From contig JAJYNW010000005.1 of the NCBI GenBank assembly GCA_021786105.1, positions 52,537 through 116,536 of the forward strand: DNA of 64,000 bases. The letters are read 5' to 3'. Each line of letters begins with the position of its first letter. The first letter of the stretch is position 1. Of the stretch, positions 1-64,000 are shown one piece after another. Under the pieces are notes generated by a model. That model was given only the letters and a program-made list of their open reading frames with translations, had not been told where the DNA came from and ran no database searches. Source of the DNA: a bacterium (GTDB lineage Bacteria > Patescibacteriota > Microgenomatia > Daviesbacterales > UBA10151). The translations under genes were made by a program, and so were the position numbers.

Positions 1-684
1 TTTACTCCTGAATTATTCAAAAAAATCAACTTAGAAAGGCTTCCCTGGAAGGAACAAACTTTTATTGTCCAACCGGCATTTTTGCATGAGGCGGTCATAG
101 CCGGGGCCAAATATAAAGAGGTGCCGCTGGTTTTTGGTGATCGGGCGGAAGGGTATTCGAAAAACAAGGTTCTCAACTACACCTATGATGTTATAACTTA
201 CGCTGTTGATGCCAGGTTGCATGCTTGGGGAATTAACATCCCTTTTTTCAAGGTGACCAGGAAAGCTAAAACTTTAATAAAGTTTAGTTTGGTGGGGTTG
301 TTAGGAACTTTCGTCGACTTCTTCTTTTATAAATTATTTATCGGCAGTTTTAATATTCCTCCGGCTACTTCCAAAGGCATGTCAGCGGAATTAGCCATCA
401 TGAACAACTTTTTCTTTAATAATTTTTGGACTTTCCGCTCACGAAAAACCAATACTAACACTTGGCAAAGATTGGGAATGTTTAATCTTTTTAGTTTGGG
501 AGGGTTGGTAATGGGGGTGCTCATAGTTAAATTCCTGCATACGTTATATGGAGATGGTTTTGCAACTGTAGGAAATTTTAAGGTGGCATACAATAACTTT
601 TATTTCTTTGCCACCATCCCTCCGGTTTTAGTTTGGAACTTTACCATAAATCATTTTATTACCTGGAAAAAACAAAAAGACTGA
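1..684 (+). CDS. 5'-truncated (continues upstream of window) GT2 glycosyltransferase C-terminal region fused to a GtrA-like 4-TM flippase domain
   Basis: Frame is open from nt 1 with no stop before the listed ORF at 82. The C-terminal ~120 aa has a GtrA-family pattern (KFSLVGLLGTFVDFFFY ... NNFFFNNFWTFRSRK; N-F-x-x-N-x-x-W-T-F). The upstream part resembles the tail of DPM1-like GT2 enzymes. Confidence 0.6.
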   Translation, partial: FTPELFKKINLERLPWKEQTFIVQPAFLHEAVIAGAKYKEVPLVFGDRAEGYSKNKVLNYTYDVITYAVDARLHAWGINIPFFKVTRKAKTLIKFSLVGLLGTFVDFFFYKLFIGSFNIPPATSKGMSAELAIMNNFFFNNFWTFRSRKTNTNTWQRLGMFNLFSLGGLVMGVLIVKFLHTLYGDGFATVGNFKVAYNNFYFFATIPPVLVWNFTINHFITWKKQKD

Positions 685-933
685 TTAAAGATTTGTAAAT
701 ATTCGGACTAAGGCAAAAAACGCGATTGCTACCCAAATAATGTTAAGTACTGCTGGCTGGTAGTTTCTCTTATAAAATGAAATAGCTATAATTCCGATTG
801 CTCCGGTTAGGTTAAGGAGTTGATATAAAATAGTATTTGAATTTAGCAAGGACCAACTTACAAGTGCGTAAGACCCAACGATTGCTGCAGTCCCATACCA
901 GCCAAAAATTTCAATTAGTTGCTTTTTTGCCAT
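685..933 (-). CDS. small (~83 aa) 3-TM membrane protein, possibly LAB_N/PQ-loop-like; candidate lipid-linked sugar translocase accessory
   Basis: Track ORF is 685..999; start refined to the ATG at 933 (MAKKQLIEIFGWYG...) so that it abuts rather than overlaps the upstream gene, which ends at 938. Three hydrophobic segments. Size and topology resemble lipid-A-disaccharide-synthase N-terminal-domain proteins. Confidence 0.4.
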   Translation of the reverse strand: MAKKQLIEIFGWYGTAAIVGSYALVSWSLLNSNTILYQLLNLTGAIGIIAISFYKRNYQPAVLNIIWVAIAFFALVRIFTNL

Positions 934-937
934 ATTC

Positions 938-2122: not shown

Positions 2123-2150
2123 ATTCTAGGTTTAATGTTACCATACAACT

Positions 2151-2846: not shown

Positions 2847-2847
2847 G

Positions 2848-4356
2848 ATGAAGCCTTTTATTGCTTGGGTTAGGAAAAATCGTTTAGAAGTAGCAATTAT
2901 TGTGCTAATTTTTTTCATGGCTGCATTCATGCGGTTTTACAATCTATCCGGCTACATGACTTTTTTGGGAGATGAGGGTCGGGATGCAATCATAATAAAA
3001 CAGATTTTGGTGGACCATAATCTACCATTTATTGGGCCTCCGACATCGGTGGGGAACATCTACCTTGGTCCTTTTTATTACTACATGATGGCGGTATCGG
3101 AGACTTTCTTTTGGTTAAATCCGGTGGCAGCAGCGGGAATGGTGGCGGGGATCGGCGTAGCGACAGTATTTTTAGTCTATTATCTGGCTCGACGCTGGTT
3201 TGGGTTTTTACCAGCTGTACTCGCAGCATCGCTTTACGCTATTTCGCCGATAAATATCATCTATTCCCGTTCTTCCTGGAACCCCGATCCGGCACCGTTT
3301 TTTGCACTACTAGCTATCTTAGGAATCTATCAAGCCCGGGAGAGCCGGAATTTCCGCTGGTTTATCTTAACCGGGGTAAGTCTGGCGGCAGCTTTACAGA
3401 TGCATTATCTGGCGATGATTTTGATCCCGATATTGGGTTTACTATGGCTGTATGAATTAGTAGTTACCAAGACCAAAAATTATAGAAATTTCTGGACCAG
3501 TACTTTAGGAGCAGTTCTTGCCTTTATCTTAATTATGCTTCCACTGGTGCTTTTTGATTTCAAACACAATTTCCTTAATTTCAAAGCAATGACGTCATTA
3601 TTTTTTGGTGGAGGGAATTCTGTCGGGTTTAGTTTTTCCTCAACTTTAGGCCGGGTCCCTGCTATTTTTAATAACTTGTTAATTGAGAGGTATATTGGAG
3701 GGCAGACTGATTTTATTGGATATACTGTCTCGGTATTAGTGCTGCTTACTTTAGGGTTTGCCATTTGGAAGAAGTTTACTAAAGAGAGGGTTAGTTGGCC
3801 CTATTTTGCCTTAGGAACTTGGTTGGTGCTAGGAATTATAGGGATCTCTCTTTACCGCCAGCAGATCTATGACCATTACTTGGGTTTTGTAAATCCTGCT
3901 CCATTTTTACTTCTCGGGGGATTGGTTAGCTTTCTAAAAGGAAGGAAGCAACTGGCTTTAATGTTGGTGCTTTTGCTAACTTTGGGGATATTCAATATTG
4001 CCAAATCTCCGCTGCAATATTCACCCAACAATCAGCTCCAAAGGACTCAAGAGATTGCCAAGTTTATAATCACTGAATCGGGAAATAAGCCGTTTAATTT
4101 TGCTCTTTTGGCGGAACATAACTATGATTCAGCCTACCAGTATTACTTAGATATTTATGGCCACAAGCCAAAAGTTGTGCCTGATGAGATTACTGATCAG
4201 CTTTTTGTGGTTTGTGAAGATGTGGTTTGTAATCCTGTAGGCAGTCCAAAGTATGAAATAGCTGCCTTTGGTTGGGCAAAAGTAGAAAACAGATGGCAGG
4301 TGTTGGGAGTAAAAGTTTACAAATTGGTGCCTAATCCAACAGGTAAACCTTCCTGA
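2848..4356 (+). CDS. GT-C-fold membrane glycosyltransferase, ArnT/PMT-like (GT39/GT83-like)
   Basis: Multi-TM N-terminal region with an early loop DE motif (FLGDEGRDA) and a C-terminal soluble domain. Directly follows a GT2 Dol-P/Und-P-sugar synthase, a GtrB-GtrC-like pairing. Confidence 0.65.
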   Translation: MKPFIAWVRKNRLEVAIIVLIFFMAAFMRFYNLSGYMTFLGDEGRDAIIIKQILVDHNLPFIGPPTSVGNIYLGPFYYYMMAVSETFFWLNPVAAAGMVAGIGVATVFLVYYLARRWFGFLPAVLAASLYAISPINIIYSRSSWNPDPAPFFALLAILGIYQARESRNFRWFILTGVSLAAALQMHYLAMILIPILGLLWLYELVVTKTKNYRNFWTSTLGAVLAFILIMLPLVLFDFKHNFLNFKAMTSLFFGGGNSVGFSFSSTLGRVPAIFNNLLIERYIGGQTDFIGYTVSVLVLLTLGFAIWKKFTKERVSWPYFALGTWLVLGIIGISLYRQQIYDHYLGFVNPAPFLLLGGLVSFLKGRKQLALMLVLLLTLGIFNIAKSPLQYSPNNQLQRTQEIAKFIITESGNKPFNFALLAEHNYDSAYQYYLDIYGHKPKVVPDEITDQLFVVCEDVVCNPVGSPKYEIAAFGWAKVENRWQVLGVKVYKLVPNPTGKPS

Positions 4357-4380
4357 AGTTGTGTATAATAAAAGTTAAGA

Positions 4381-5127
4381 ATGAGTAATCCCAAATTATC
4401 AGTTATTATTCCCGCTTATAATGCTGCAGAAGACTTAAAACGGGGAATATTAGATGATGTGGCCAAATACCTAGCGAAGCAGGGTTACCCCTCCGAAGTG
4501 TTAATTGTCAATGACGGTTCATCTGACCAAACCGCAGAAATTGTTAAGAAAAATATCGCTGATAAGAAAAGTTTCCGGTTGATCGATAATCCACATAAAG
4601 GAAAAGCGGTGACGGTAATGACCGGGCTTTTAGAAAGCTGTGGGGAGATTGCGGTTTTTACCGATGTTGACCAGTCCACTCCGCTTCCTGAAATTGAGAA
4701 ATTTTTTCCTAAATTTGAGCAAGGGTTTGATATTGTAATTGGTTCCAGATCAGGAAGGTCAGGATCTCCTTTTATTCGGAAGATTGCAACTTTGGGATTT
4801 TCAATCTTAAGAACAGTTATTTTAGGTTTGAATATCTCCGATACCCAATGTGGGTTTAAAGCTTTTGACAGAAAAGCTATAGAACAAATTTTCCCTCCAC
4901 TGCTTAAAAAATACCAAGAGGTAAATGTTTCGGGGCGGGCTTTAAATGCTGATTTTGATGCGGGATTTTTGTTTTTAGCCGGAAAGAAAGGCTTAAAAAT
5001 TGCCGAAGTTAAAGTTGATTGGCATGATGAAAATCCGGAATCCGCTAATCTGGTTAAAAACGCTATTGATACTATCAAAGGGATGATCAGAATTCGGGTT
5101 AGTGATTTCCGGGGAGAGTATGCTTAA
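4381..5127 (+). CDS. GT2 polyprenyl-phosphate sugar synthase (DPM1/GtrB-like)
   Basis: LSVIIPAYNAAEDL, VLIVNDGSSDQT and DVDQSTP (DxD-like) motifs; paralog of 2151..2846. Confidence 0.8.
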   Translation: MSNPKLSVIIPAYNAAEDLKRGILDDVAKYLAKQGYPSEVLIVNDGSSDQTAEIVKKNIADKKSFRLIDNPHKGKAVTVMTGLLESCGEIAVFTDVDQSTPLPEIEKFFPKFEQGFDIVIGSRSGRSGSPFIRKIATLGFSILRTVILGLNISDTQCGFKAFDRKAIEQIFPPLLKKYQEVNVSGRALNADFDAGFLFLAGKKGLKIAEVKVDWHDENPESANLVKNAIDTIKGMIRIRVSDFRGEYA

Positions 5128-6670
5128 TCTATTAAAAACTCGCAAAGTGGAGTGCCTATCCTTAATCCTTTTAATAGGACTTTATTTTGTTTTAAGACTA
5201 CCACATTTAACTTTGCAGCCGATTTTTGCTGACGAGGCAATCTATATTCGCTGGGCCCAAGTGATGGTAGCAGAACCAACCCTTCGATTTTTACCCGTTA
5301 CTGATGGCAAAACACCACTTTTTATGTGGATCATGATGCCTTCATTCAAGTTTTTCGTTGACCCACTACTAACCGGGAGGATTTTGTCTGTTTTTGCCGG
5401 AGCTGCTACTTTGGCGGGAGTGTTCTTTTTAGGGTGGAAGTTTTTCAACTTGAGAAGTGGTTTGTGGGCAGCCCTTCTTGTTGCCGTTACCCCATTTATA
5501 GTTTTTTTTGACCGTTTGGCTTTGGTGGATTCCATGTTGGCAGCTTTTTCGCTTTGGGCGTTAATTTTGGGTTTATTGGTTGTGAAATATTTACGGGTAG
5601 ATTTAGCAATGTGTTTAGGGTACGCCTTGGGGGGTGCGTTACTAACTAAAACTCCAGCAATGTTTAATTTCATTGCCCTCCCTTTCACTATTTTAACTAC
5701 GAATTTTTCTCGGGTCGGTAGAGAAAAAAGGTTCTTAAAGATATTGTTGCTGTGGATTTTAGCAGTTGGCATTGCTCTGGTAATGTATAATTTTTTAAGG
5801 CTTGGACCGAGTTTTGAAAAACTTAATGCCAGGAATCAAGATTACGTTTTTTCCCCATTGGAGCTTGTTGGGAGGCCATTGGATCCTTTTATCCCTCACT
5901 TCCATGATGTTACTGAATTTTTCTCCAAATTAGTGGGAATAGTTGGGTCCTTGTTTGTAATTTTAGGAGTTATTTTGGCTATTGTTAAGAGAAACCGTGT
6001 GGGGTTGGTTATTTTGATTTGGAGTTTAATTCCGCTTTTAATCGAGATGGCTTTCCTAAAGACATTTACTGCAAGGTATATTCTCTCTTCTATTGCCCCG
6101 CTTCTTATTTTAGCTGGATGGGGAATTTCCGAGATTGAGAAATTGATGACTGCAAGAATAAAAAATAAAGTATTGCCCGCACTAGCTCTTTTTATAGTAA
6201 TTGTTTTTTACCCGTTGTCTTTTGATTACTTATTGATAACTGCTCCTGCTCAGGCGGCAGTTCCGGTGAACGACCATAAAGGTTATTTTGAGGAATGGAC
6301 TGCAGGTTATGGGTTTCCTGAGATTGCTCAATTTTTAATTGGGAAAGCCCAGAACGGTCCGGTTATAGTTTTGACGGAGGGATTTTTTGGGACGCTTCCG
6401 GATGGATTGGAAATTTACCTGGAAAAGTATATCCATCAAGCGCCGAAAGGACATGAGATTGTAGTAAAAGGTACAGGCGGCATCAAGATTCCTGAAGATA
6501 TAAGAAAAACAGCATTGACTAGTCAAGTGTATTTTGTTGCCAACCGTTCCCGGTTAGACCCTCTTCCGCCGGGGGTTGAATTAATTAAGGAATTCCCTAA
6601 AAATAAAACTTATATTAATTCACAGGAAGCGATCTTTCTTTTTAAAGTTTTGCCGGAGGTTAAAAAATGA
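5120..6670 (+). CDS. GT-C-fold membrane glycosyltransferase, ArnT/PMT-like
   Basis: Track ORF begins at GTG 5102; the ATG at 5120 is preceded by GGGGAGAG. Loop motif FADEAIYIRW (DE) after TM1, more than 10 TM helices, C-terminal soluble domain. Confidence 0.6.
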   Translation: MLNLLKTRKVECLSLILLIGLYFVLRLPHLTLQPIFADEAIYIRWAQVMVAEPTLRFLPVTDGKTPLFMWIMMPSFKFFVDPLLTGRILSVFAGAATLAGVFFLGWKFFNLRSGLWAALLVAVTPFIVFFDRLALVDSMLAAFSLWALILGLLVVKYLRVDLAMCLGYALGGALLTKTPAMFNFIALPFTILTTNFSRVGREKRFLKILLLWILAVGIALVMYNFLRLGPSFEKLNARNQDYVFSPLELVGRPLDPFIPHFHDVTEFFSKLVGIVGSLFVILGVILAIVKRNRVGLVILIWSLIPLLIEMAFLKTFTARYILSSIAPLLILAGWGISEIEKLMTARIKNKVLPALALFIVIVFYPLSFDYLLITAPAQAAVPVNDHKGYFEEWTAGYGFPEIAQFLIGKAQNGPVIVLTEGFFGTLPDGLEIYLEKYIHQAPKGHEIVVKGTGGIKIPEDIRKTALTSQVYFVANRSRLDPLPPGVELIKEFPKNKTYINSQEAIFLFKVLPEVKK

Positions 6671-8322
6671 ACCTAATAAAAAAAATTACCTGGGTTTTTT
6701 TAATAATTTTGGTTTCCATACCGGCGTTATTACCTTTAACTAGGCAAGGATTCTTCCCTACCCAAGATTTTATTCATGTAGCCAGAATCTACGAGATGGA
6801 CAAGGCTTTAAAGATAGGCCAGTTTCCAGTCAGGTGGGTTCCTGATTTTCGCTATGGTGAGCCAACCTTTGATTTTTATGCCCCGCTCCCATTCTATCTA
6901 GGATCATTAATTCACAACCTGAACTTTAGTTTCCTGGATACAACCAAAATTCTTTTCGGTTTAAGTTTCCTGCTCTCCGGTTTGGCGATGTACCTCCTGT
7001 CAAAGGAATTTTTCGGAAAGGTCGGTGGACTTATCTCAGCAACTTTATATATTTATGCGCCGTATCATTCCGTAGATATCTATGTTCGGGGAGCCTTATC
7101 AGAATCACTCGCGCTAATATTTTTCCCGCTAATTTTTTTAACTGCATTCAGACTAACAAAAGAAGTTAATACTAAAAATATTGCCTTGACTGCACTATCT
7201 TTTGGCGGGCTTTTCCTGACACACAACGTTATGACTGTGCTTTTCACCCCTTTTGCTTTGGGCTGGTTAGCATTTTTGGTTTGGAGGGAGAGGAACTTAA
7301 AGTTAATAAAACCTTTTGGAGTTTCACTTTTGCTTGGCGCAGGCCTTGCCGCAACATTTATGCTGCCGGCATTTTTTGAAAAGAATTTAGTCCAGTCGGA
7401 TAAGATGATTACCGGATACTTTGATTATCGCGGCCATTTCGTGGAAATTAAACAGTTCTTTTCGACATTTTGGGGATATGGGGCATCTTTGTGGGGTCCT
7501 GAAGACGGTATGTCTTTTCAGGTGGGGCTTGTCCATTGGGCCGTTTTTGGTTTGTCCCTTATTACCTCTTTTGTATTCTTTAAAAACAAAAAACAACTCT
7601 ACTTAATTTTGGCTTTGGCTGCAGCCTTCTTGTTTTCATTATTTATGCAGCACAATAAGTCCACCCCTATCTGGACCCACCTTTCACTTTTGGCTTACAC
7701 CCAATTTCCCTGGAGGTTCTTGGGAATTTCGATATTCCTGGTTTCTTTTATTGGTGGGGTATTAGGAACTGTCTTTAAAAAGAAGTTGGTTATCCTGGCG
7801 TTAGTCTTAATCGTTGCAACTGTTTACTTTAATATAAACTTTTTCCACCCGGAGTCATATTATTTGGATTCCATAGATGCTCATTATGTAGGCCCGGAAG
7901 TTTTGGCAAATGGTGATAAATTACCGAAGGATTATTTACCTATTTGGGTTCAGGATTTACAGAGAGACAGGATTATATTCCCCCATACAGTAGGAGGGGA
8001 GGCAATAATTTCTAATTATCAAAATAATTCAACTTCCGCGCAGTTTCAGGCAAAAGTAACCAAAGATGCGGACATTGAAGTACCTTTAACCTACTTTCCA
8101 GGATGGCAAGCTTCAGCAAACAATAAACCAGTCAATCTTGAAACTCCGGATAAATATGGGTTGATTAGAATAAAATTGACACCAGGAGACTACAATGTAA
8201 AATTAACGTTCTTGGATACTCCAATAAGAAGTTTTGGCAATGCCTTATCCATTGTCTCTCTTGTGACAATTATCGGCTTGCTGGCTATGAAAAAGTTTAA
8301 ATTTAAACCATGGTTAACCTAA
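6667..8322 (+). CDS. YfhO-like GT-C-fold membrane glycosyltransferase (tandem paralog 1)
   Basis: Polytopic N-terminal region. C-terminus has the YfhO-type signature (LTYFPGWQASANNKPVNL) followed by a final TM helix. ATGA overlap with the upstream gene. Confidence 0.55.
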   Translation: MNLIKKITWVFLIILVSIPALLPLTRQGFFPTQDFIHVARIYEMDKALKIGQFPVRWVPDFRYGEPTFDFYAPLPFYLGSLIHNLNFSFLDTTKILFGLSFLLSGLAMYLLSKEFFGKVGGLISATLYIYAPYHSVDIYVRGALSESLALIFFPLIFLTAFRLTKEVNTKNIALTALSFGGLFLTHNVMTVLFTPFALGWLAFLVWRERNLKLIKPFGVSLLLGAGLAATFMLPAFFEKNLVQSDKMITGYFDYRGHFVEIKQFFSTFWGYGASLWGPEDGMSFQVGLVHWAVFGLSLITSFVFFKNKKQLYLILALAAAFLFSLFMQHNKSTPIWTHLSLLAYTQFPWRFLGISIFLVSFIGGVLGTVFKKKLVILALVLIVATVYFNINFFHPESYYLDSIDAHYVGPEVLANGDKLPKDYLPIWVQDLQRDRIIFPHTVGGEAIISNYQNNSTSAQFQAKVTKDADIEVPLTYFPGWQASANNKPVNLETPDKYGLIRIKLTPGDYNVKLTFLDTPIRSFGNALSIVSLVTIIGLLAMKKFKFKPWLT

Positions 8323-10034: not shown

Positions 10035-10041
10035 ACTATAA

Positions 10042-10203
10042 CCGCTTTGCCAGAACAGTGCATTTAAATTCTGAGTAAATTTGGCAAAGATAAGCGGAGC
10101 TTGCGACCTTCGGTCTAATGGTTTCAAACTTCCGCAGTTTAATGCTAGCAAAGCGGATGTAAACTTGAAAGGAGAAAATGCAGACTTTCGGTCTGCGGAA
10201 GTT
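10042..10203 (+). promoter_or_regulatory. structured intergenic leader with nested and mutually exclusive inverted repeats upstream of or around the Wzx start
   Basis: CCGCTTTGCCAG (10042..10053) pairs with TTGGCAAAG..GCGG (10081..10097). GACCTTCGGTC hairpin at 10105..10115. AACTTCCGCAG (10127..10137) is perfectly complementary to CTGCGGAAGTT (10193..10203), enclosing AAAGGAG and ATG 10178. Confidence 0.4.
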
Positions 10204-15163: not shown

Positions 15164-15169
15164 AACAAA

Positions 15170-15184: not shown

Positions 15185-15193
15185 TGCAAGTTT

Positions 15194-25247: not shown

Positions 25248-25303
25248 CGAGTTTGCATACCATCAAGTTTACTTGTGCCTCTGAAATTGTTAACATTTAC
25301 TGT

Positions 25304-40103: not shown

Positions 40104-40105
40104 AA

Positions 40106-41347: not shown

Positions 41348-41348
41348 T

Positions 41349-52761: not shown

Positions 52762-52765
52762 GGTT

Positions 52766-54999: not shown

Positions 55000-57085
55000 G
55001 TTAAAACTTATTTCAGATTGGAAAATTGCCGTTGTGCTCAGTTTATTGTTTTTTGTGGTAGCTGTGATCACACTTCCTGATTATGGTATCAACTGGGACA
55101 CCATTAACCACTTACCTAGGGGGCAGGCCTACCTACATTATTTTTTGACAGGAAATAAAGACTATAACGACCTGCCTGAATGGAGTATATATTGGCAGAA
55201 CCCTCAATCGCTTTCGATAAATGCAAATTTACCCAGTGATGAAGTAAAAGGGCGTAGTTTTTATGAGAGTGTTGGTATGCCGTTTACTTGGATGATACAA
55301 CATGAGGGAGGAAGTAGTGGAGGCGGTCATCCTCCTTTAAGTGACATACTCTCCTCAGTATTTAATGTTGTCTTATTTCAAAATCTGGGAATAATAAATG
55401 ATATTGATTCGTATAGAGTTTATAGCATACTCCTTGCATCTTTATTGGTAGGTTTGATTTATAAGTGGGTTGCGTCAAAATATGGAAAGTTACCTGCATT
55501 AATATCTGCCCTATCTTTAGCGTTATATCCTCTTTTTTGGGCAGAATCTCATTTTAATAATGAAAAGGATATACCGGAAACCGTTTTTATATCATTTATG
55601 ATTTTCTTTTTCTGGCAGGGAATCGTTCAGGAGAAATGGAAGAAGGTTTTAATTTCTGGTTTATTTTTCGGTTTGGCTCTGGGTACGAAATTTAATGTCT
55701 TATTTGTCCCATTTATTATTTTGCCCTGGCTTACAATATATTGGTGGGGTAAAAAACAAGAATGGGAAAAAGGGTTTGGGAGATGGTTTCTTTCTAAACG
55801 TAGTCTATTTTTTTCTTCCGTTGCAGCACTTGCAATTGGCTCTGCTATATTTATTTTTTCTTGGCCTTATCTTTGGACGAATACAATCTCCCGGGTTGCC
55901 AAGGTGGTTGGGTTTTATAAAGAGATAGGCCTTACTGCTAATATCAATCAGAACTACGTTGGCCCATTTAAAATTAATACCTATCCCATTCAGTGGATTG
56001 CTTATACCACTCCGCCCATAATTTTAATTTTAACTTTAATTGGGATTATCTCTATCCCAAAGTTAATAAGAAAAGATAATGAAAAGCTTTCTTTATTAAT
56101 TTTGTTGTGGTTGGCAATCCCGATTTTGCGGGTTACAGCTCCCGGTACAACAATTTATGGTGGTATCCGCCAGATTATGGAGTATATTCCTCCGTTGGCA
56201 ATTCTTTCAGGTATTGGAACTGCAACTATACTTGGGCTTTTGAAGAAAAGGCTTTACCGGTTTATTGCTATTGGATTAATTGTTCTGGGATTTTCATTTA
56301 ACATTTATCGTCTGATATCTATTCACCCGAATGAAAATGTGTATTTTAATTTTTTAATTGGAGGTTTGAAGGGCGCCAAAGAGAGAAATATTCCTTCCTG
56401 GGGGAATACTTTTGGGGCAGCTTATAGAGAGGGAATTATCTGGATAAATAAAAATGCTGAGCCAGGTAGTTCGGTAGTAATGGCGCACGGTTTAATGCCA
56501 AACATACCCAAGATTTGGTTAAGGTCCGACCTGAACTTTACCAATAGTTTACGGAGTGGATATTTACGTCAGGGAGAGTATGCTATCTCTTTAACTTCCG
56601 AAGGAACAGATGATTCGTCGTACTATGACACTTACCTGTCTAAATTCATGAAACCAGTTTATGAGGTAAAAGTAGATGGTGTAGATATTTTGGAAGTTTG
56701 GAAAAATGATAATACTCATCTGATTTCCCCTTGGAATGAAGAAAATTTGTCGGGGGTAAAAATGACCAGAGATAATAATGGACTGACATTTGATTTGGGT
56801 CAGGTTGAGAGGGTATCGAGATTAGAAATTGATTATCAGGAAAGTAGTTGTCAGCCTTTAAGTTCCGGGTATGTGAGATATTCAGTTAACGGTAAAGATT
56901 GGGGAGAAAATGAAGGGAAGCTTCCTCAAAGTTGGAGAATAGCAACATTGGGTCAGCAACCAAAGGATGGAAAATTTTTAGAACCTTTTGTTGGTCAAGA
57001 AATTCGGTATATAAAGCTAGGCCTATCACCGCAAGATGCTTGTTTAAACAATGTAGTAGACTATAAAGTGTTTGCATTTAAGTAA
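54992..57085 (+). CDS. GT-C-fold membrane glycosyltransferase (ArnT-like) with C-terminal discoidin (F5/8 type C)-like domain
   Basis: TM1 then a DYGINWDTINHLPRGQAY loop and a multi-TM core. The last ~130 aa (LTFDLGQVERVSRLEIDY ... YSVNGKDWGE ... IRYIKLGL) follow the discoidin-domain pattern. Confidence 0.55.
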   Translation: MHKLKLISDWKIAVVLSLLFFVVAVITLPDYGINWDTINHLPRGQAYLHYFLTGNKDYNDLPEWSIYWQNPQSLSINANLPSDEVKGRSFYESVGMPFTWMIQHEGGSSGGGHPPLSDILSSVFNVVLFQNLGIINDIDSYRVYSILLASLLVGLIYKWVASKYGKLPALISALSLALYPLFWAESHFNNEKDIPETVFISFMIFFFWQGIVQEKWKKVLISGLFFGLALGTKFNVLFVPFIILPWLTIYWWGKKQEWEKGFGRWFLSKRSLFFSSVAALAIGSAIFIFSWPYLWTNTISRVAKVVGFYKEIGLTANINQNYVGPFKINTYPIQWIAYTTPPIILILTLIGIISIPKLIRKDNEKLSLLILLWLAIPILRVTAPGTTIYGGIRQIMEYIPPLAILSGIGTATILGLLKKRLYRFIAIGLIVLGFSFNIYRLISIHPNENVYFNFLIGGLKGAKERNIPSWGNTFGAAYREGIIWINKNAEPGSSVVMAHGLMPNIPKIWLRSDLNFTNSLRSGYLRQGEYAISLTSEGTDDSSYYDTYLSKFMKPVYEVKVDGVDILEVWKNDNTHLISPWNEENLSGVKMTRDNNGLTFDLGQVERVSRLEIDYQESSCQPLSSGYVRYSVNGKDWGENEGKLPQSWRIATLGQQPKDGKFLEPFVGQEIRYIKLGLSPQDACLNNVVDYKVFAFK

Positions 57086-57088
57086 TAT

Positions 57089-57688
57089 ATGAAATTTATA
57101 TCTTTTATTTGGCTAAAAGCTGCCTTTATTTTTAACCCAGTCCAGATGTTTTTTAACGGAAACTTTTGGGAGGTTTTTGCAAAAAAGTTTGGAAGCTACA
57201 CACAAAAAACTGTAGTGGATTTGGCTTGTGGCACAGGAGAGTTAAGAAAAAGTATAAAACCTAAAAAATATCTCGGAATAGATATTAATGCTGCCTATAT
57301 TGATTATGCCAGAAAGAACATCAAGAGTGAGAATACAAAATTTATTCTTGGAAATGCTTTAGAATTCTCCCTTCCGGAAAAGTTTGATATTGCCTTTTTA
57401 ATTGCAGCTGCTCATCATTTATCAGATCAACAGCTGCTAACCTTATTTTCAACAATTGAGAAGAACAAGATTAAAAATTTTATCCTTATAGATGACATTC
57501 CCCAAGGTTTTCTATCGAACATATTAATGTGGTTGGATGATGTTTTAGGAGGTGGAAAATATTTCCGACAGTTGGATGAGTTGGCGGATTTGGTGGGACG
57601 TAAATTTAAGATCGAAGATCAAGGGACTTTTTCGGCGCGGGGCTCTTTCTACAAGTACCGTTATATTGTTTCTTCCTCAAAAGCGTAG
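57089..57688 (+). CDS. class I SAM-dependent methyltransferase
   Basis: VVDLACGTGEL (motif I), YLGIDINAAYIDYARKN and FDIAFLIAAAHHL. Confidence 0.65.
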   Translation: MKFISFIWLKAAFIFNPVQMFFNGNFWEVFAKKFGSYTQKTVVDLACGTGELRKSIKPKKYLGIDINAAYIDYARKNIKSENTKFILGNALEFSLPEKFDIAFLIAAAHHLSDQQLLTLFSTIEKNKIKNFILIDDIPQGFLSNILMWLDDVLGGGKYFRQLDELADLVGRKFKIEDQGTFSARGSFYKYRYIVSSSKA

Positions 57689-58421
57689 AGGTCAATTTAT
57701 TAACTTTTCTCATCAATATAAGCTCGATCCAGAGCAAAGTTAGTTCTTTAAACGTAGAGAGTAAACGGCTGGGGTGAAAAAATTGTGAGTGGCCAAACCT
57801 TCTTTCGTAGTGATGTACTGAAACCTGACGATATTTCGCGCCTGCTTTTTGGGCTTTCTTCACAAGTTCCACGCATATAGATCCACTATTACTTCTTAGG
57901 TTAACTTTGCTAAGTAGACTTCTCCTGATTAGTCTAAAATCGCAATCTACATCATAAGTCGGGAGCCAAAACATCCAGCGGGTAACGAAAGAGTATAAAT
58001 TCCCAATAAGAATTCTATAAGTCGCGTCTTGCCGGGCCATTTTAATGCCGTTAACGAAATTTACATCATCGGTCATGAGAGTAAAGAGTATGGGGAGTTC
58101 TTTGACATCATACTGACCGTCACCATCAGTATAAAAAATTAAATCCTTGGTCGCAGTCTTAAAACCTGTTCTCAATGCTCCGCCATATCCTTGATTATGG
58201 GTATGAAAAACTGGTTTGAAATGAGGGTATTTCAGAGCCAACTTTTTTAATATTTCAGGACTGTTGTCTTTCGAACCGTCATCAACAACTATAACTTCAA
58301 AGTCATGAGTTAAAAGGCTTGCGGTTTCAATTGCATTTTCAACTAACTTTCCGATACTCTTTCCATCGTTATAACAAGGGAAGAAGATAGAGAGACTTGG
58401 TTTTCTTGTTGGGTTAGCCAT
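57606..58421 (-). CDS. GT2 polyprenyl-phosphate sugar synthase (DPM1/GtrB-like)
   Basis: LSIFFPCYNDGKSI, VIVVDDGSKDNS, GYGGALRTGF and YTDGDGQYD motifs. The basic low-complexity C-terminal tail is encoded antisense to the 3' end of the methyltransferase gene. Confidence 0.75.
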   Translation of the reverse strand: MANPTRKPSLSIFFPCYNDGKSIGKLVENAIETASLLTHDFEVIVVDDGSKDNSPEILKKLALKYPHFKPVFHTHNQGYGGALRTGFKTATKDLIFYTDGDGQYDVKELPILFTLMTDDVNFVNGIKMARQDATYRILIGNLYSFVTRWMFWLPTYDVDCDFRLIRRSLLSKVNLRSNSGSICVELVKKAQKAGAKYRQVSVHHYERRFGHSQFFHPSRLLSTFKELTLLWIELILMRKVNKLTSTLLRKKQYNGTCRKSPAPKKSLDLRS

Positions 58422-58427
58422 ACCTAA

Positions 58428-59366
58428 TTAAATTACTTTTTTAATAAAAGAGGAATAGTCAGATTTCCCTTTAGAGTGAACTAACATTTCTGCAAGAAGT
58501 CCAGTGGAAATAAATTGGATTCCGATAACCATCAGCAATATTCCTAGGAATAACAATGGTTGCCGGTATTGGATGGTTCCTGTTGTTATCCTTAGATAAG
58601 AAATATAGAGACCGATTAAGAATCCCAAAAAGAATGATATTAAACCAAAAGTTCCGAAGAAATGACCAGGTCTGCGAGTATAACCAGTGAGGAATATAAT
58701 TGTCAGGAGGTCTAAGATTCCCTTAATTCCTCTACTCCAGCCAAATTTAGTTTTACCGTATTTCCGCGCTCGGTGTTCGACTATCACTTCCCCGACTCTA
58801 AAATTTTGTTTAGCGGCAATGATAGGAATAAAGCGATAAAGTTCGCCATAAAGGTTAAGGTTATCGATCAGTTCTCTCCGGTAAGCTTTAAAACCGCAAT
58901 TGGTGTCATGTATCTTAATTCCTGTAAGCCTGCGGGTTAGGAAGTTAATAATTCGGGAAGGAATGACTTTCCCGATTGAAGGATCGTGGCGATTCTTTTT
59001 CCACCCTGACACCAGATCGTAACCTTCTTCAATCATATTAATAAACGAGGGGATTTCCTTAGGGTTGTCTTGGAGGTCAGCGTCTAAAGTGAAGATTATT
59101 TTACCTTCAGCATGATCAAAACCGACTTGGAGAGCAGCAGATTTACCAAAATTTCCTCGGAACCTAATAACTTTTACATTCCTATCATTTTGGTGAATTT
59201 TTTCCATAACCTGGAAAGTTTTATCAGTAGATCCGTCATCAATGAAAATAATTTCGTAGGTTTTCTTAAGTTGTTTGACGACCTCGAGGATTTCGGTATA
59301 GAGGATCTCTATGGAATCTTCTTCGTTTTTTGCTGGTATAATAAAGGACAACTCACAGCTTTTCAT
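58428..59366 (-). CDS. GT2 polyprenyl-phosphate glycosyltransferase, GtrB/ArnC-like with two C-terminal TM helices
   Basis: LSFIIPAKNEEDSI, IIFIDDGSTDKT, LDADLQDNP and CGFKAYRRE motifs, plus C-terminal hydrophobic helices (LLTIIFLTGY ... FLGILLMVIGIQF), the classic GtrB/ArnC architecture. Confidence 0.8.
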   Translation of the reverse strand: MKSCELSFIIPAKNEEDSIEILYTEILEVVKQLKKTYEIIFIDDGSTDKTFQVMEKIHQNDRNVKVIRFRGNFGKSAALQVGFDHAEGKIIFTLDADLQDNPKEIPSFINMIEEGYDLVSGWKKNRHDPSIGKVIPSRIINFLTRRLTGIKIHDTNCGFKAYRRELIDNLNLYGELYRFIPIIAAKQNFRVGEVIVEHRARKYGKTKFGWSRGIKGILDLLTIIFLTGYTRRPGHFFGTFGLISFFLGFLIGLYISYLRITTGTIQYRQPLLFLGILLMVIGIQFISTGLLAEMLVHSKGKSDYSSFIKKVI

Positions 59367-59422
59367 AAGATTGTTTCTTTATGCCTAATATCATATCATT
59401 ACAGGTGTGTAAAGTACATTAG

Positions 59423-60451
59423 ATGAAAGCGACCAAGCCACAAAATCCCAAGATTTCCGTTATCATGCCCACTCTTAATTCACAGAGAACTTTAAGGCTT
59501 TGTCTTAGTTCCATTGCTAACCAAAAATATTCAGGGGAAGTAGAAATTATAGTAGCCGACGGAGGCAGTACCGACGAAACTCTTAAGATTGCTAAGGAAT
59601 TTCAAGCTAAGATTTATAAAAATATCTTAAAGACCGCGGAAGCAGGTAAGGCTGTGGGAGCCAAGTATGCAACTGGCGGAATATTAGCTTTTATTGATTC
59701 GGATAATATTTTGCCTGAAGATGATTGGTTTGAAAAAATGATCCAACCATTTAAAGAAGATAGCAGTATTGTGGCTTCAGAACCGCTTTATTTTACTTAT
59801 AGAAAAGACGACCATTGGTTAACAAGATATTTTGCGCTCTTGGGTATGGGTGATCCTTTAAGCCTATTTATTGGGTACTATGATAGGTATAGTTACATTT
59901 CAAATAGATGGACAGATTTGGATATAAAGTACAAGGAGAATAAAGATTACTTAGTACTTTCCTTGGATAAAGTGGACCTAACTATTGGTGCAAACGGTTT
60001 TTTAATGAAGAAAGACGAACTTAAGAAATATCCAATTAAAGATTATTTGTTTGACATAGATGTTTTAAAATTTTTAGCTAAAGAAAAGCCAATAAAAGTA
60101 GCAAAGGTAAAGACTGGAGTTGTACATTTATTCAGTGGAAATATTTCGACATTTATTAGGAAACAAAGGCGGCGCGTTAAGGACTTTTTGTATTTTCAAA
60201 GTAATGGCATGAGAGTTCAGAAGATCCAAGATTCAATCGTCTTTTGGGGTGTTTTAAAATTTGCTTTAGCCAGTGTGACAATTTTTCCATTAATTTTCCA
60301 AACCCTAAGCGGATTTTTGAGAAAAAGAGACGTCGCATTATTTTTTCACCCCTTAGCTTGCTGGTTAACTCTTTGGACGTATGGCACAGAATCCTTAAAA
60401 TCCTGGATTACTCCCATTGAACAATTAGATAGAAAGAAATGGAGTCAATGA
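59423..60451 (+). CDS. GT2 glycosyltransferase
   Basis: ISVIMPTLNSQRTL, IIVADGGSTDET and IDSDN (DxD) motifs, with a C-terminal region containing one or two hydrophobic helices. Confidence 0.7.
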   Translation: MKATKPQNPKISVIMPTLNSQRTLRLCLSSIANQKYSGEVEIIVADGGSTDETLKIAKEFQAKIYKNILKTAEAGKAVGAKYATGGILAFIDSDNILPEDDWFEKMIQPFKEDSSIVASEPLYFTYRKDDHWLTRYFALLGMGDPLSLFIGYYDRYSYISNRWTDLDIKYKENKDYLVLSLDKVDLTIGANGFLMKKDELKKYPIKDYLFDIDVLKFLAKEKPIKVAKVKTGVVHLFSGNISTFIRKQRRRVKDFLYFQSNGMRVQKIQDSIVFWGVLKFALASVTIFPLIFQTLSGFLRKRDVALFFHPLACWLTLWTYGTESLKSWITPIEQLDRKKWSQ

Positions 60452-61497
60452 ATTCGAAGTTCCCCCTGGTTTCTGTCATCATTGTTAACTGGAATGGTGG
60501 AAAGGTTTTTGATGATTGTCTAAAAACATTATCCAAAATTGATTATCCTAATTGGGAATTGATTGTGGTGGATAATGCTTCAACTGATAAAAGCGAAGAT
60601 CTGCCTGCAAAGTATAAGCAGATCAAATCGATACAATACATTAAAAATGAAAAGAACTTGGGTTTTGCTCCAGCTAATAATCAAGGATTAAAACTGGCAA
60701 AAGGAGAGTTTGTTTTACTTTTAAATAATGACACTAAAGTAACTCCTGAATTTCTTTCCGAATTAGTCGGTAGATTAATGCAGGATCCTAAAATTGCAGT
60801 GATCCAGCCTAAAATATTTCTTTATGACAACCCGGGATATTTGGATAACGCTGGGTCATATCTTACGAAGATTGGATTTTTGAAACATTGGGGTTTCATG
60901 AAAAAAGATGGACCGGAGTTTAATCAGGAAACAGAGATTTTCTCAGCAAAAGGTGCTTGTATGCTTATTAGGAAATCAGCAATTTTAAAAGCGGAAGGGT
61001 TATTTGATGAGGAATTCTTTTCATATTTTGAAGAGAGCGATTTTTGTTGGAGGATTTGGTTAAGTGGATATAAAATTATCTACTATCCTCAAGCAGTTAT
61101 CTATCATAAATTGGGATATACTATCCGTCGATTAAATGTGGTCAAGCTAAACTACCATTACTATAAGAATAGAATTTGCTCTTTAATTAAGAATCTAGAA
61201 TTTAGAAACTTATTATTCATCGGAACCGTTCATTTATTTATATCATTAGGAATTATTACTGCATTTCTCGTGACATTTAAGTTCCACAATGCTTCTATGG
61301 TAGCAAAGGGTATAATTTGGAATTTATTGAATTTGCCGAAAACTTTACAAAAAAGGAGAGATATTCAAAAGAGGAGAAAGGTATCCGATAAAGAAATTTT
61401 TAATCGCCTTGGAAAATCAATTGAGTGGTTTAAGTACTTGGAAGATTTCCGCCGTGTAAGCAAAGATACGGAAAGAAAAGTGGTCTCCACAGTTTAG
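60439..61497 (+). CDS. GT2 glycosyltransferase, WbbL/RfbF-like, with C-terminal TM region
   Basis: VSVIIVNWNGG, VVDNASTD, NLGFAPANNQG and YFEESDFCWRIWLSGY motifs; C-terminal hydrophobic helices. Confidence 0.75.
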   Translation: MESMNSKFPLVSVIIVNWNGGKVFDDCLKTLSKIDYPNWELIVVDNASTDKSEDLPAKYKQIKSIQYIKNEKNLGFAPANNQGLKLAKGEFVLLLNNDTKVTPEFLSELVGRLMQDPKIAVIQPKIFLYDNPGYLDNAGSYLTKIGFLKHWGFMKKDGPEFNQETEIFSAKGACMLIRKSAILKAEGLFDEEFFSYFEESDFCWRIWLSGYKIIYYPQAVIYHKLGYTIRRLNVVKLNYHYYKNRICSLIKNLEFRNLLFIGTVHLFISLGIITAFLVTFKFHNASMVAKGIIWNLLNLPKTLQKRRDIQKRRKVSDKEIFNRLGKSIEWFKYLEDFRRVSKDTERKVVSTV

Positions 61498-61498
61498 A

Positions 61499-63784
61499 AT
61501 GAAGAAAATTGCTCACTTAATTTACAGTTGGATCCAGGAAAATAAGTTATTGGCTGGGATTTTGGCGATTGCTGCTTTGTTGCGATTTATAGGCGTCTAT
61601 CCGGGCTATCCTCCAACTCATCCAGATGAAACATATATCTATGGACATGCACTGCAAATGATCAAGAACTTAAACATTGATCCTACCAGGTATGACTACC
61701 CGGCATTTATTCCCTTAATTCATGCGATGTTGTATATGTTAATCTTTAACCCGGTTTTTATAGTCTACAGTTTCATTTTTTCTCCTGATAATCTGCCTGT
61801 TTTTAGGAATGTACTCTTTTTTTATCAGCATGTGCCTCTATATAATCAACAAACTGCTGCTATTTTTTGGGGACGGGCAATTACTGCTGCGTTTAGTTTG
61901 GGAACTGTCTATTTAGTTTTTCAAGTTGGTAAAAAATACTTTAATTACTACACAGGAATTGCGGCAGCGTTGTTAACTGCAGTGAATTTTAGAGAGGTAT
62001 TAAACAGCCATATTGGCTTACCGGATGTCTATAACGCTTTTTTCTTACTCTTGTGTTTCTACTTTTTTAAACAATTATTAGAAAGTCCGAATAAGAAGAA
62101 TTACTTTTTAAGCGGTATCTCATTGGCATTCTTTTTCTCTACAAAGTCTCAAGTCTTTCCTATACTAACATTTTTCTTGGTCCATCTAATTGCTGTCTGG
62201 CCAAAGAAAATACAAGGGAATCTAAGAGCATTAATAAGGGGATTGTTTAAAAAAGATTTTATCATAGCTGCCTTAATTTCCCCAATTTTCTATCTAATAA
62301 TTAACGTTTACCAATTTATCCATTGGGATAAATTTTATGCAAGCAACTATTACACTACATTGCAATATCGTTTTGGAATAAATAACTTGGATTTTTATCC
62401 CATTTCCTACATGTATCATATTGGGATTGGAGGAATAATTCTAATGCTTATTCCAGTTGGTTTAATATTAGGTTTCTGGAGATTTAGATTACAAACAAGC
62501 TTGCTTTCATCTGTGCTAATTCCATTTTTAATTGTTTTTCTTTATTACAGTAATGGAGGCTTTTACATTCGTAATTTTGTAACAGTTATTCCTCTGTTAT
62601 TAATTTTTGCAAGTGTTGCTATAAGTGAAATCTTCACTGTTGTAAGCAGGATTCTAATACTTAATTCTAAAGTAACGACATTACTCATAATTGTTGCAGT
62701 AATGGTTCTTTCTGCCCAACAAATCAGAGATTCGTTTATTAATACGCTTAGCTTTACGAGGCCATGGGCAATGACTGAGGCCAGAATGTGGGTTGAGAGA
62801 AATGTTCCGAACGGAGAAACAATTGCTGTTAGGCAATTTGACAAATTTTCAAAAGGTAAAAATTTTAAACGAGTAGCTTTTGGAATGGATAACGTTTTTT
62901 CTTTAGCCGAGATGCAGGAAGAGAGGGCCTCTTATGGGTACATATCTTTAGATGAGCTCTCAAATAATTTTTACTGGTGGATGAGGACAATGTCAGACGA
63001 ATCAATAAAATATTGGAATAAGGAAAATGCCGACTCAATCTCTCAAAACATGTATCCCGCCGTTGCCTCATCAGAGCTGGCCTCTTGGGCGGTGGCTGCA
63101 TATATTAAACCATGGCAAGCTCCTGATTCGAGTTTCTTTATCGTTCGGGTTCCTGATGTATTAAGTTTAGGTAACAAAAAATTAATTGCAGAATTCCCTT
63201 TTAATGATTCACGCAGTTTATCTTCCTGGAGTTTGGTAAATGGTTGGGATAAGGATGTTAAAAATATTAACTGGGATGGTAATTTGGGTTATGACAAGAA
63301 AGGATCGTTACGATTAGTAAGATCAGGCGCTTATCCTTCGGTAATTCGGGCTGTTTCACCGGCAATTTCGGTAGTGAGTAACGGTAATCAGATAAAGGCT
63401 TACGAGGTTGCGGCTTGGATGAAAACAGGAGATAGTTTGGCAAAGAAAGTTCGTGATGGATATATAAGGGTTGATTTTTATGAAAATGATCCTGGCAAAA
63501 TTACACTTACAACCGGAAGTTTGTACACTGCTTTATCATCCAGAGTTTATGGAACATCAGATTGGGTGGAGAAAAGAGTTACTGTGGTTCCTCCTGTGAA
63601 TTCTAAATTTATGACTGTGAGCTTAGAAATGCAGGGCCAGGGGGGGACGGATATATGGGCTGATGATGTAAGTATTTTTGAGTCAGAGAAATTTTTCTCG
63701 GATCCTAGGGTTCAGAAACCATACCTAAACTATTATAAAATCCCCAAAAACGTTTTATTCCCCGTGAGTCATGGCAATCTTTAG
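61499..63784 (+). CDS. GT-C-fold membrane glycosyltransferase (ArnT-like) with C-terminal CBM_4_9-like carbohydrate-binding domain
   Basis: PPTHPDETYIYGHALQ (DE loop) and a multi-TM core. The last ~200 aa form a beta-rich domain ending IWADDVSIFE, similar to CBM4/9/22-type modules. Confidence 0.6.
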   Translation: MKKIAHLIYSWIQENKLLAGILAIAALLRFIGVYPGYPPTHPDETYIYGHALQMIKNLNIDPTRYDYPAFIPLIHAMLYMLIFNPVFIVYSFIFSPDNLPVFRNVLFFYQHVPLYNQQTAAIFWGRAITAAFSLGTVYLVFQVGKKYFNYYTGIAAALLTAVNFREVLNSHIGLPDVYNAFFLLLCFYFFKQLLESPNKKNYFLSGISLAFFFSTKSQVFPILTFFLVHLIAVWPKKIQGNLRALIRGLFKKDFIIAALISPIFYLIINVYQFIHWDKFYASNYYTTLQYRFGINNLDFYPISYMYHIGIGGIILMLIPVGLILGFWRFRLQTSLLSSVLIPFLIVFLYYSNGGFYIRNFVTVIPLLLIFASVAISEIFTVVSRILILNSKVTTLLIIVAVMVLSAQQIRDSFINTLSFTRPWAMTEARMWVERNVPNGETIAVRQFDKFSKGKNFKRVAFGMDNVFSLAEMQEERASYGYISLDELSNNFYWWMRTMSDESIKYWNKENADSISQNMYPAVASSELASWAVAAYIKPWQAPDSSFFIVRVPDVLSLGNKKLIAEFPFNDSRSLSSWSLVNGWDKDVKNINWDGNLGYDKKGSLRLVRSGAYPSVIRAVSPAISVVSNGNQIKAYEVAAWMKTGDSLAKKVRDGYIRVDFYENDPGKITLTTGSLYTALSSRVYGTSDWVEKRVTVVPPVNSKFMTVSLEMQGQGGTDIWADDVSIFESEKFFSDPRVQKPYLNYYKIPKNVLFPVSHGNL

Positions 63785-63789
63785 ATTAA

Positions 63790-64000
63790 TCATTTAACAA
63801 CGGATTGACCCATGTTTACTTCTACCCATCTGATAAACGGGAATTGTTTGGAAAAAAGCCAAAACTTTTCGGATTCCAAGATTGCGTCGGGACGTTTTGA
63901 CTTGCTGGAGGGAACTACTGAAGAATTATAGTGGATACCGGGTCTATCTGCGGTTCGCGACCAGCCAGCGAATTTTTCGGCAGGCATTTTGTATTTATCG
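63790..64000 (-). CDS. 3' end of an unidentified CDS continuing beyond the window edge
   Basis: The minus-strand frame is open from 64000 down to a stop at 63790; no recognisable motif. Confidence 0.25.
   Translation of the reverse strand, partial: DKYKMPAEKFAGWSRTADRPGIHYNSSVVPSSKSKRPDAILESEKFWLFSKQFPFIRWVEVNMGQSVVK

Follow-up and report, generated by a model that had tools for sequence, protein, structure and literature searches.

The stretch of 64,000 nucleotides (nt) analysed here, referred to throughout as the window (contig JAJYNW010000005.1, positions 52,537–116,536 of the forward strand), comes from a groundwater member of Candidatus Daviesbacteria (Microgenomates, candidate phyla radiation, CPR) with a genome of ~1 Mb, and belongs to a cluster rich in genes for membrane-embedded GT-C glycosyltransferases. 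We mapped 49 open reading frames (ORFs), which are named by their left window coordinate; labels of the form Lnnn denote the contigs and loci used for comparison. The ORF map and Pfam scans reproduced nearly all gene coordinates given in a preliminary description made from the sequence alone. The window is 98.6% coding, with 42 of the 49 ORFs (86%) on the + strand and overlaps of exactly 4 nt at nine gene junctions; this description had reported such overlaps in co-directional runs. GC content is 35–40%, all 4-kb bins show positive GC skew, and neither tRNA or tmRNA genes (tRNA scan) nor Rfam matches at gathering score were found in the 64 kb.

GT-C enzymes of the window

All 49 ORFs were scanned against Pfam, and proteins were called GT-C on a match to the GT-C clan above the gathering score unless stated otherwise. 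Fifteen passed this cutoff (+ strand except where noted), eight of them through PMT_2: 2848–4356 (ArnT-like, 39.3 bits, with a DE motif after the first transmembrane segment, TM1), 5102–6670 (37 bits; called start 5120, a gene of 516 amino acids (aa) on L017), 15194–16705 (48.3 bits), three tandem paralogs at 32270–33922, 33919–35466 and 35423–37066 (39–67 bits, 33–35% mutual identity, WDE after TM1), 54992–57085 (52.5 bits, with a weak, sub-cutoff C-terminal match to the carbohydrate-binding F5/8-type-C domain, F5_F8_type_C, 22.2 bits) and 61499–63784 (30.4 bits; 761 aa, including a C-terminal domain of ~340 aa that has no Pfam match). PMT was matched by 20588–22102 (40.8 bits) and by the 394-aa protein at 938–2122 (− strand; 23.4 bits against a cutoff of 22.7), which is PMT/PIG-V-like, has a BLAST link to 38892 and carries NFDG after TM1. 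The remaining above-cutoff proteins are two paralogs of the PTPS_related family (PF10131; 6667–8322 and 8310–10034, 33.5 and 28.7 bits, 35% mutual identity), an 812-aa YfhO protein (27034–29472, − strand, 116.7 bits), a PIG-M/GT87-like protein (16702–17937; Mannosyl_trans 26.5 bits, GT87 21.4 bits) and a PIG-V-like protein (38892–40103; Mannosyl_trans2 38.1 bits). The label YfhO-like, previously given to three genes, therefore holds for 27034 (117 bits); 6667 and 8310 belong to PTPS_related instead.

Two further proteins matched GT87 (DUF2029) below cutoff, namely 22060–23457 (24.0 bits against 25, E = 3.8e-5, DD motif after TM1) and 43995–47114 (− strand). Three large polytopic proteins (11699–15163; 18570–20543, − strand; 23475–25247, with the motif YPDEFDN after TM1) and two small proteins (17930 and 43199) gave no Pfam match. 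The GT-C tally for the window is thus 20 proteins with 21 modules, which amount to 12,151 aa and ~57% of the window and bear out the earlier estimate of about 20. By sequence, they fall into at least seven families.

GT-C enzymes typically span the membrane with 7–13 transmembrane (TM) helices. A hydropathy scan found 5–18 TM segments in all 20 candidates, and the two proteins that were modelled have ~13 (18570) and ~12 (23475) membrane helices. GT-CA enzymes are defined by the position of a catalytic Asp or Glu in the first external loop, where it occupies the tip of the first juxtamembrane helix (PMC12041299). An acidic DE, DD or D lies 5–25 residues past TM1 in 19 of the 20 proteins, its position being unclear in the modules of 43995. 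In the two models, D135 of 18570 opens a helix at residues 133–148 and D41/E42 of 23475 opens one at residues 40–53, so that in both the first loop helix has the conserved Asp at its N-terminal tip. Judged by family matches and motif position, the polytopic proteins are GT-C enzymes and not transporters, as the preliminary description had held, with use of polyprenyl-linked donors predicted.

The 1,039-aa protein 43995, in which a DUF2029-like module had been noted, has GT87 matches in keeping with that label and appears to contain two GT-C modules followed by a short C-terminal domain. Its C-terminal half scores 22.4 bits against GT87, and a 59%-identical homolog has PF09594. For its N-terminal half, an exhaustive HMMER search found 57 relatives, of which the stand-alone ones (~410 aa) match GT87 (best 33 bits), and a profile of this half matches the PIG-M structure (E = 8.7e-4); hhalign of the N-terminal half against 16702 gave a probability of 13.5% only. 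Together, the matches of the C-terminal half, those of the N-terminal relatives and the PIG-M match lead us to read 43995 as a tandem of two GT87/PIG-M-like modules.

At least two of the GT-C families lack Pfam models and appear to be new, and structure prediction for both is confident. The first comprises 18570 and the C-terminal part (residues 507–1150) of the 1,154-aa fusion protein 11699, which are paralogs with 31% identity over 650 residues; they had been grouped earlier by the motif HGHDGxWH, and this motif is indeed invariant in a 32-sequence alignment of the family, as are many residues in predicted external loops. The family has 688 detectable relatives; among the matches listed, 120 in number, none has a Pfam domain, and those with a name are without exception annotated 'hypothetical protein' and come from Daviesbacteria, Microgenomates or Parcubacteria. 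Pfam STT3 (PF02516) was not recovered, as 18570 has no Pfam match at E ≤ 0.01 and the C-terminal domain of 11699 none at E ≤ 1, and profile searches of PDB sequences with this family and the 23475 family returned nothing useful. The AlphaFold model of 18570 (pLDDT 88.7, pTM 0.90) was searched with Foldseek, and all 21 significant matches (E = 4e-10 to 2e-7) were oligosaccharyltransferase (OST) catalytic subunits or DPY19, at TM-scores of only 0.45–0.49 to the STT3/AglB/PglB/DPY19 group. A near-invariant P560-x-I562-W563-x-W565-x-D567 lies ~47 residues past the last TM segment; the W563-x-W565-x-D567 region recalls the WWDYG motif of STT3-type enzymes but differs from it in the alignment. The modelled fold, extended to 11699 by homology to 18570, thus resembles that of STT3, AglB, PglB and DPY19 and, since the long form always stands behind a Wzx flippase gene, makes the family a candidate for oligosaccharyl transfer. 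For the second family, that of 23475 (pLDDT 92.1), 50 relatives were recovered, including one with the name 'glycosyltransferase family 39'.

The N-terminal 500 residues of 11699 form a predicted extracytoplasmic domain whose profile matches 3lm3 (E = 4e-4, a weak DUF3863 match), and the L018 ortholog of 11699 has PF12979. DUF3863 may, we assume, belong to the glycoside-hydrolase/deacetylase superfamily. This weakly DUF3863-like domain (~390–500 aa) is also joined to other C-terminal parts, in a 758-aa ORF of L012 and an 806-aa ORF of L015, and occurs in metagenome-assembled genomes (MAGs) labelled Puniceicoccales and Ruminococcus.

Accompanying genes, extent and conservation of the cluster

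Besides the GT-C enzymes, Pfam identified 12 complete GT2 genes and four GT4 genes in the window, the latter as previously counted; the thirteenth GT2 of the preliminary description may be a GT2-GtrA fusion gene cut by the window start. This gene (1–684, + strand, the 3′ part of a 395-aa gene) has a GtrA domain at 82–684 (GtrA_DPMS_TM, 69 bits), its full copy on L017 has PF00535 and PF04138, and by its domains it is a DPMS-type polyprenyl-phosphate-sugar synthase with a built-in GtrA-like membrane domain. Among the complete GT2s, ArnC, PgfS, dolichyl-phosphate-hexose transferase or PpgS models rank top or near the top in NCBIfam only for five, which we regard as synthase-like: 2151–2846 (+; soluble, best model ArnC, full-length alignment to ArnC/DPMS catalytic domains at E = 1e-14 to 1e-16), 4381–5127 (+; PgfS, ArnC and dolichyl-phosphate-hexose transferase), 41313–42143 (+; PgfS/PpgS-like) and two genes on the − strand within 57606–59366. 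Of this last pair, 58428–59366 has two C-terminal TM helices and aligns over residues 4–295, TM helices included, with ArnC (E = 1e-47) and GtrB (sll0501, E = 2e-39) in PDB comparisons, and is by sequence a full-length ArnC/GtrB homolog.

The remaining seven GT2s resemble rhamnosyltransferase/EpsD/MftF or SunS/TIGR04283 models and, with the GT4s, look like ordinary cytoplasmic nucleotide-sugar-dependent transferases. They are 25253–26206 (SunS/TIGR04283-like) and 26203–27054 (rhamnosyltransferase-like), 29560–30363 and 31436–32254 on either side of the GT4 at 30363–31439, 37071–37931 followed by the GT4 at 37928–38977, and two MftF/PgaC/rhamnosyltransferase-like genes within 59423–61497 that encode one C-terminal TM helix each (all + strand). 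The other two GT4 genes open and close a + strand group at 49938–54999, which consists of GT4 49938, the LPG_synthase_TM protein 51050, the S-adenosylmethionine (SAM) methyltransferase 51994, the short-chain dehydrogenase/reductase (SDR) epimerase/dehydratase 52766 and GT4 53722; a second SAM methyltransferase lies at 57089–57688 (+).

Five flippase candidates had been proposed; Pfam supports four flippase-type proteins, namely the GtrA domain above, the Wzx-type proteins 10178–11698 (+; Polysacc_synt_3, 176 bits) and 40091–41347 (+; Polysacc_synt, 71 bits), and LPG_synthase_TM 51050 (77 bits). The cluster therefore has ~6 synthases and 4 flippases for ~21 GT-Cs. The preliminary description had proposed a GtrA/GtrB/GtrC logic with a triad of synthase, flippase and GT-C repeated many times. 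Its pairing of synthase and GT-C is borne out at GT2-GtrA with 938, 2151 with 2848 and 4381 with 5102, pairs that are kept in L005, L007, L010 and L012; yet only the five complete GT2s and the truncated fusion are synthase-like, and the triad is not repeated one for one.

A predicted extracytoplasmic O-acylation pair on the + strand consists of an MBOAT acyltransferase (47208–48701, 83.7 bits) and a membrane-anchored AlgX-like SGNH protein (48703–49941, ALGX 67.8 bits). Assignment of 47208 as DltB was rejected: it scores 159 bits against a cutoff of 375, its partner is AlgX-like rather than DltD, and DltA and DltC are absent from the window. Three small or soluble proteins complete the gene set. 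An 82-aa membrane protein of the CBU_0592 family (PF26604; 685–933, − strand, called as a gene on L017) has the GT2-GtrA fusion on one side and the GT-C gene 938 on the other, and may be a GacJ-like helper or flippase partner. The 210-aa protein 17930–18562 (+) has no known family, carries TM helices at both its N- and C-terminus and always stands between the orthologs of 16702 and 18570 (synteny in L004, L007 and L008); a small PglC-like initiating transferase was considered for it and dismissed, as it has no Pfam match even at E ≤ 1. The 264-aa soluble protein 43199–43993 (+), likewise without a known family, adjoins a TPR gene (42157–43182, +). Both 17930 and 43199 may be accessory subunits.

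The cluster extends beyond both edges of the window. Upstream of the GT2-GtrA fusion, L017 carries an epimerase gene and rmlD, rmlC, rmlB and rmlA (L017:11439–17040), and dTDP-rhamnose synthesis therefore belongs to the cluster; rhamnosyltransferase-like GT2s occur in the window itself. Beyond the rml genes lie the housekeeping genes for TsaD, RF-1 and an ABC ATPase. At the 3′ edge, a convergent 677-aa gene (L001:3544–5577) has its last 70 codons inside the window (63790–64000, − strand, an open frame with its stop codon at 63790). The full protein scores 26.0 bits against PMT_2 (cutoff 26.1) and is probably the 21st GT-C protein; past it the content is unrelated (DUF362, amine oxidase, DUF5667 and an 874-aa F5/8C protein). 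Given these boundaries, the cluster measures about 71 kb and encodes about 21 GT-C proteins, and it takes up about 7% of the largest contig that carries window proteins (942,606 bp). Window proteins of identical sequence and in the same order were found on contigs assembled from three different samples, and this, with synteny in other species, rules out an assembly artefact or chimera. Groundwater samples that contain this genome are SRR13178629, SRR13201255 and ERZ27237183.

GTDB species representatives were scanned with 11699, and the recovered loci were then compared with all window proteins by tblastn. Full-length orthologs of 11699 (47–50% identity) were present in Candidatus Daviesbacteria and Patescibacteria MAGs and were syntenic, which agrees with the CPR origin suggested earlier. 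The order 938-2151-2848-4381-5102-6667-8310-10178-11699-...-15194-16702-17930-18570 is kept, at 45–60% protein identity, in at least eight species representatives, and in all cases examined a Wzx gene lies immediately upstream of the 11699 ortholog. The synteny check that had been proposed for related MAGs thus found conserved gene order. Some variation was detected: PTPS_related copy number ranges from two to four (four in L004, L006 and L009, two in the window), five relatives (within L004–L010, ~13.4–15.4 kb) have an extra 18570-type gene, 35–44% identical and directly after the 11699 ortholog, that the window lacks, and the block 25253-29560-30363 stands directly behind 15194 or 18570 in L004, L009 and L010. 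Similar GT-C-rich arrays occur in the Microgenomates locus L018 and the Levybacteria-like locus L019. The conserved order and these further arrays indicate a trait of the Microgenomates lineage and not a peculiarity of one genome. Related loci were also found in MAG records titled 'uncultured Gammaproteobacteria bacterium', which look taxonomically wrong: L004 (CAYLXC01) and L010 (CAZVEX01) have the Daviesbacteria-type syntenic cluster at 45–60% protein identity, L012 (CAYMYO01) a more distant GT-C array, and L011 (CAZSWA01) mainly the N-domain of 11699.

Proposed assembly route and its alternatives

On balance, we consider it probable that the window forms the core of a conserved locus of ~71 kb for the assembly of a cell-envelope glycan, in which most glycosidic bonds would be formed on the outer face of the membrane. 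Multi-component transmembrane glycosylation couples a GT-C to a GT2 that makes the lipid-linked sugar and to a flippase of the GtrA or Wzx type (PMC8035078; PMC11127046), and the parts of the cluster fit this logic. Because these parts are combined with a conventional cytoplasmic set (seven GT2s, four GT4s, two Wzx and the rml genes), we propose an assembly line in which many linkage-specific GT-Cs draw on a few shared polyprenyl-phosphate-sugar donors and extend or branch an exported primer. The families, folds and motifs of the proteins were established directly, as were gene order and its conservation; donors, acceptor and the sequence of steps are inferred as follows. Nucleotide sugars would be made in the cytoplasm by RmlABCD and the SDR epimerases. 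The conventional GT2s and GT4s, whose presence alongside the two Wzx points to a lipid-linked primer made in the cytoplasm, would assemble an oligosaccharide primer or repeat that the Wzx proteins export, while six ArnC/GtrB/DPMS-like GT2s would load polyprenyl phosphate with single sugars, to be flipped by the GtrA-type domain, the LPG_synthase_TM-type protein or Wzx. Outside, each of the ~21 GT-Cs, with the conserved Asp/Glu at the helix tip as putative catalytic base, would contribute a single sugar or linkage to the glycan after its export, and possibly also to proteins. The STT3-like proteins 11699 and 18570, near Wzx, may carry out en-bloc or ligase-type transfer from a diphosphate-linked intermediate, the MBOAT/AlgX pair would O-acylate the product, and the two methyltransferases would methylate sugars.

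By analogy with mycobacterial lipomannan/lipoarabinomannan (LM/LAM) and arabinogalactan assembly and with the decoration of streptococcal and lactococcal rhamnose polysaccharides, the product that we favour is a wall polysaccharide or lipoglycan of complex, branched structure. Glycan acceptors are likewise favoured by the weak accessory-domain matches, that is, the sub-cutoff F5/8C domain of 54992 and the DUF3863-like domain of 11699; it has been suggested that large GT-Cs may carry acceptor-binding carbohydrate modules (PMC8035078). Several points weigh against this proposal. The NCBIfam matches of all GT2s fall far below the equivalog cutoffs, so that sugar specificity is not assignable. No match to PF00953, PF02397 or Wzz was found among the 49 ORFs and the flank genes, and neither the window nor the sequenced flanks showed an initiating phosphoglycosyltransferase (WecA/MraY- or WbaP/PglC-type), a Wzy polymerase (the only trace in the window being a sub-cutoff Wzy_C match of 17.7 bits inside the PMT_2 protein 35423), a chain-length regulator, an LCP ligase or an ABC exporter, so that only part of a primer pathway is visible. 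Nor could any gene of the window or the flanks be recognised as an acceptor or as belonging to an acceptor pathway. In other organisms, PMT-type and STT3-like enzymes attach sugars to proteins, and a single product shared by all genes is presumed.

Alternative readings would divide or redirect the locus. The genes could form adjacent, independent pathways with different products, for example a rhamnose wall polysaccharide, a YfhO-dependent teichoic-acid-type decoration and an ArnT-like lipid modification, which is possible though we doubt it. Two separate Wzx genes and seven different GT-C families would suit such an arrangement, as would the strand switches and gaps (143 nt before 10178, 87 nt before 29560 and 93 nt before 47208) that divide the window into blocks, and the rearrangement of the block 25253-29560-30363 in L004, L009 and L010. 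However, the blocks are physically linked in all relatives examined, including the Levybacteria-like loci, none is a complete known pathway with initiating transferase, polymerase and ligase, and donors must be shared between blocks because GT-Cs greatly outnumber synthases and flippases. We think it unlikely that the locus serves mainly protein glycosylation, with PMT/PMT_2-like GT-Cs O-glycosylating surface or secreted proteins (S-layer, pilins, Ser/Thr-rich proteins) from polyprenyl-phosphate sugars and 11699 and 18570 transferring a Wzx-flipped oligosaccharide or single sugar. The PMT and PMT_2 matches point that way, as do the conserved pairing of Wzx with 11699 and the match of the ArnC/GtrB-like GT2s to PgfS, the model of a streptococcal protein-glycosylation system. 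Against this, PMT_2 also includes ArnT-type lipid and glycan transferases and its scores here are modest (30–67 bits), neither a Pfam STT3 match nor a strict WWDYG motif was found, the weak accessory-domain matches suggest binding of carbohydrate and not of peptide, and 21 distinct transferases exceed the need of any known protein-glycosylation system.

The preliminary description had called the system combinatorial, which would make the GT-C paralogs interchangeable generators of variable surface glycans for evasion of phages or hosts. Tandem paralogs (the PMT_2 trio at 32270–37066 and the PTPS_related pair at 6667–10034) and the variable copy number of PTPS_related and 18570-type genes between species could be read in this way, but change in copy number is limited, the paralogs are old (28–35% mutual identity) and other species hold one-to-one orthologs in corresponding positions at 45–60% identity, so that we regard such a role as very improbable. 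Identical proteins were moreover recovered from three samples, and no tRNA or Rfam feature was present, although repeats, invertible elements and RNA switches were not searched for specifically. The proposed assembly of an envelope glycan can also be carried further, to a conjecture that we hold at low confidence: the HGHDGxWH family would be an unrecognised bacterial branch of STT3/AglB/PglB/DPY19 that, with Wzx, moves a flipped oligosaccharide or sugar onto proteins or the wall, and the Microgenomates envelope would be heavily glycosylated almost wholly by extracytoplasmic GT-C chemistry, at the cost of ~7% of a 1-Mb genome.

Novelty and comparison with known systems

Every component class of the locus is already known. 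What appears to be new is the scale and concentration (a single locus with ~21 GT-Cs of at least seven families, in a genome of only ~1 Mb) and the conservation across Microgenomates; an incomplete coverage of the literature on glycosyltransferases of CPR, Patescibacteria, Microgenomates and Daviesbacteria and on Patescibacteria oligosaccharyltransferases yielded no account of GT-C expansion. CPR bacteria (Patescibacteria) are abundant and mostly uncultivated, with genomes of ~1 Mb, and since they presumably live attached to cells of other organisms, the cell surface is central to their biology. A locus of this kind implies a very complex surface glycan or glycoproteome made outside the membrane, and offers targets for studies of attachment, host recognition and phage receptors. 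The STT3-like family could also widen the known range of bacterial oligosaccharyltransferase-type enzymes.

Several known systems share only part of the gene content. Of a Wzx/Wzy-type cluster, the two Wzx proteins (10178 and 40091) are present, and the initiating transferase, Wzy and chain-length regulator are not; of Dlt D-alanylation, DltA, DltC and DltD are missing and the MBOAT 47208 is sub-cutoff. As in the ArnC/ArnT modification of lipid A, 58428 is most similar to ArnC and several GT-Cs match PMT_2, the Pfam family of ArnT, yet ArnA, ArnB, ArnD and ArnE/F are absent and scores lie far under the equivalog cutoffs; to our knowledge, a CPR monoderm would not be expected to carry lipid A. 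The 18570 family shares with STT3, AglB, PglB and DPY19 an overall fold of ~13 TM helices in which the final four are preceded by a large external loop, and its C-terminal globular domain corresponds to the core domain of AglB. It departs from OST in that the catalytic loop follows the third helix and not the first, HGHDGxWH replaces the DxD motif, the candidate motif is W-x-W-F-D and not WWDYG, and no sequence match to Pfam STT3 or PDB was obtained.

The closest known systems are the multi-component Gtr-type systems (Shigella Gtr; Bacillus/Listeria CsbB-GtcA-YfhO and GtlA/GtlB; Streptococcus GacI/J/K/L; PMC8035078, PMC11127046), with which the locus shares adjacent GT2 synthase, GtrA/Wzx flippase and GT-C genes and a YfhO member; like rhamnose-polysaccharide loci, it is adjoined by rml genes. 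In those systems, one to few GT-Cs decorate a polymer from a separate, recognisable pathway, whereas here ~21 GT-Cs outnumber synthases and flippases three- to five-fold and fill more than half of the 64-kb window, with no separate backbone pathway (initiating transferase, polymerase, ABC exporter) visible.

The number of GT-Cs is comparable to the complement that we would expect for an entire mycobacterial genome of 4.4 Mb. Mycobacterial LM/LAM and arabinogalactan assembly (Ppm1, PimA/B, PimE, MptA-C, EmbA-C, AftA-D) likewise employs many GT-Cs, GT87/PIG-M-like enzymes among them, each forming one outer linkage, and it relies on polyprenyl-phosphate-sugar donors, prior cytoplasmic GT4 steps, acyltransferases and large GT-Cs with carbohydrate-binding domains, all of which are predicted here. 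Unlike in mycobacteria, the genes lie in one locus and are not scattered, the genome is only ~1 Mb, the phylum is unrelated, and a decaprenyl-phosphate-arabinose pathway (UbiA-type synthase, DprE1/E2) and the Emb and Aft families are absent. By analogy of components and predicted steps, the closest functional counterparts of the locus nevertheless appear to be the assembly of LM/LAM and arabinogalactan in mycobacteria and the decoration of rhamnose polysaccharides in streptococci and lactococci.

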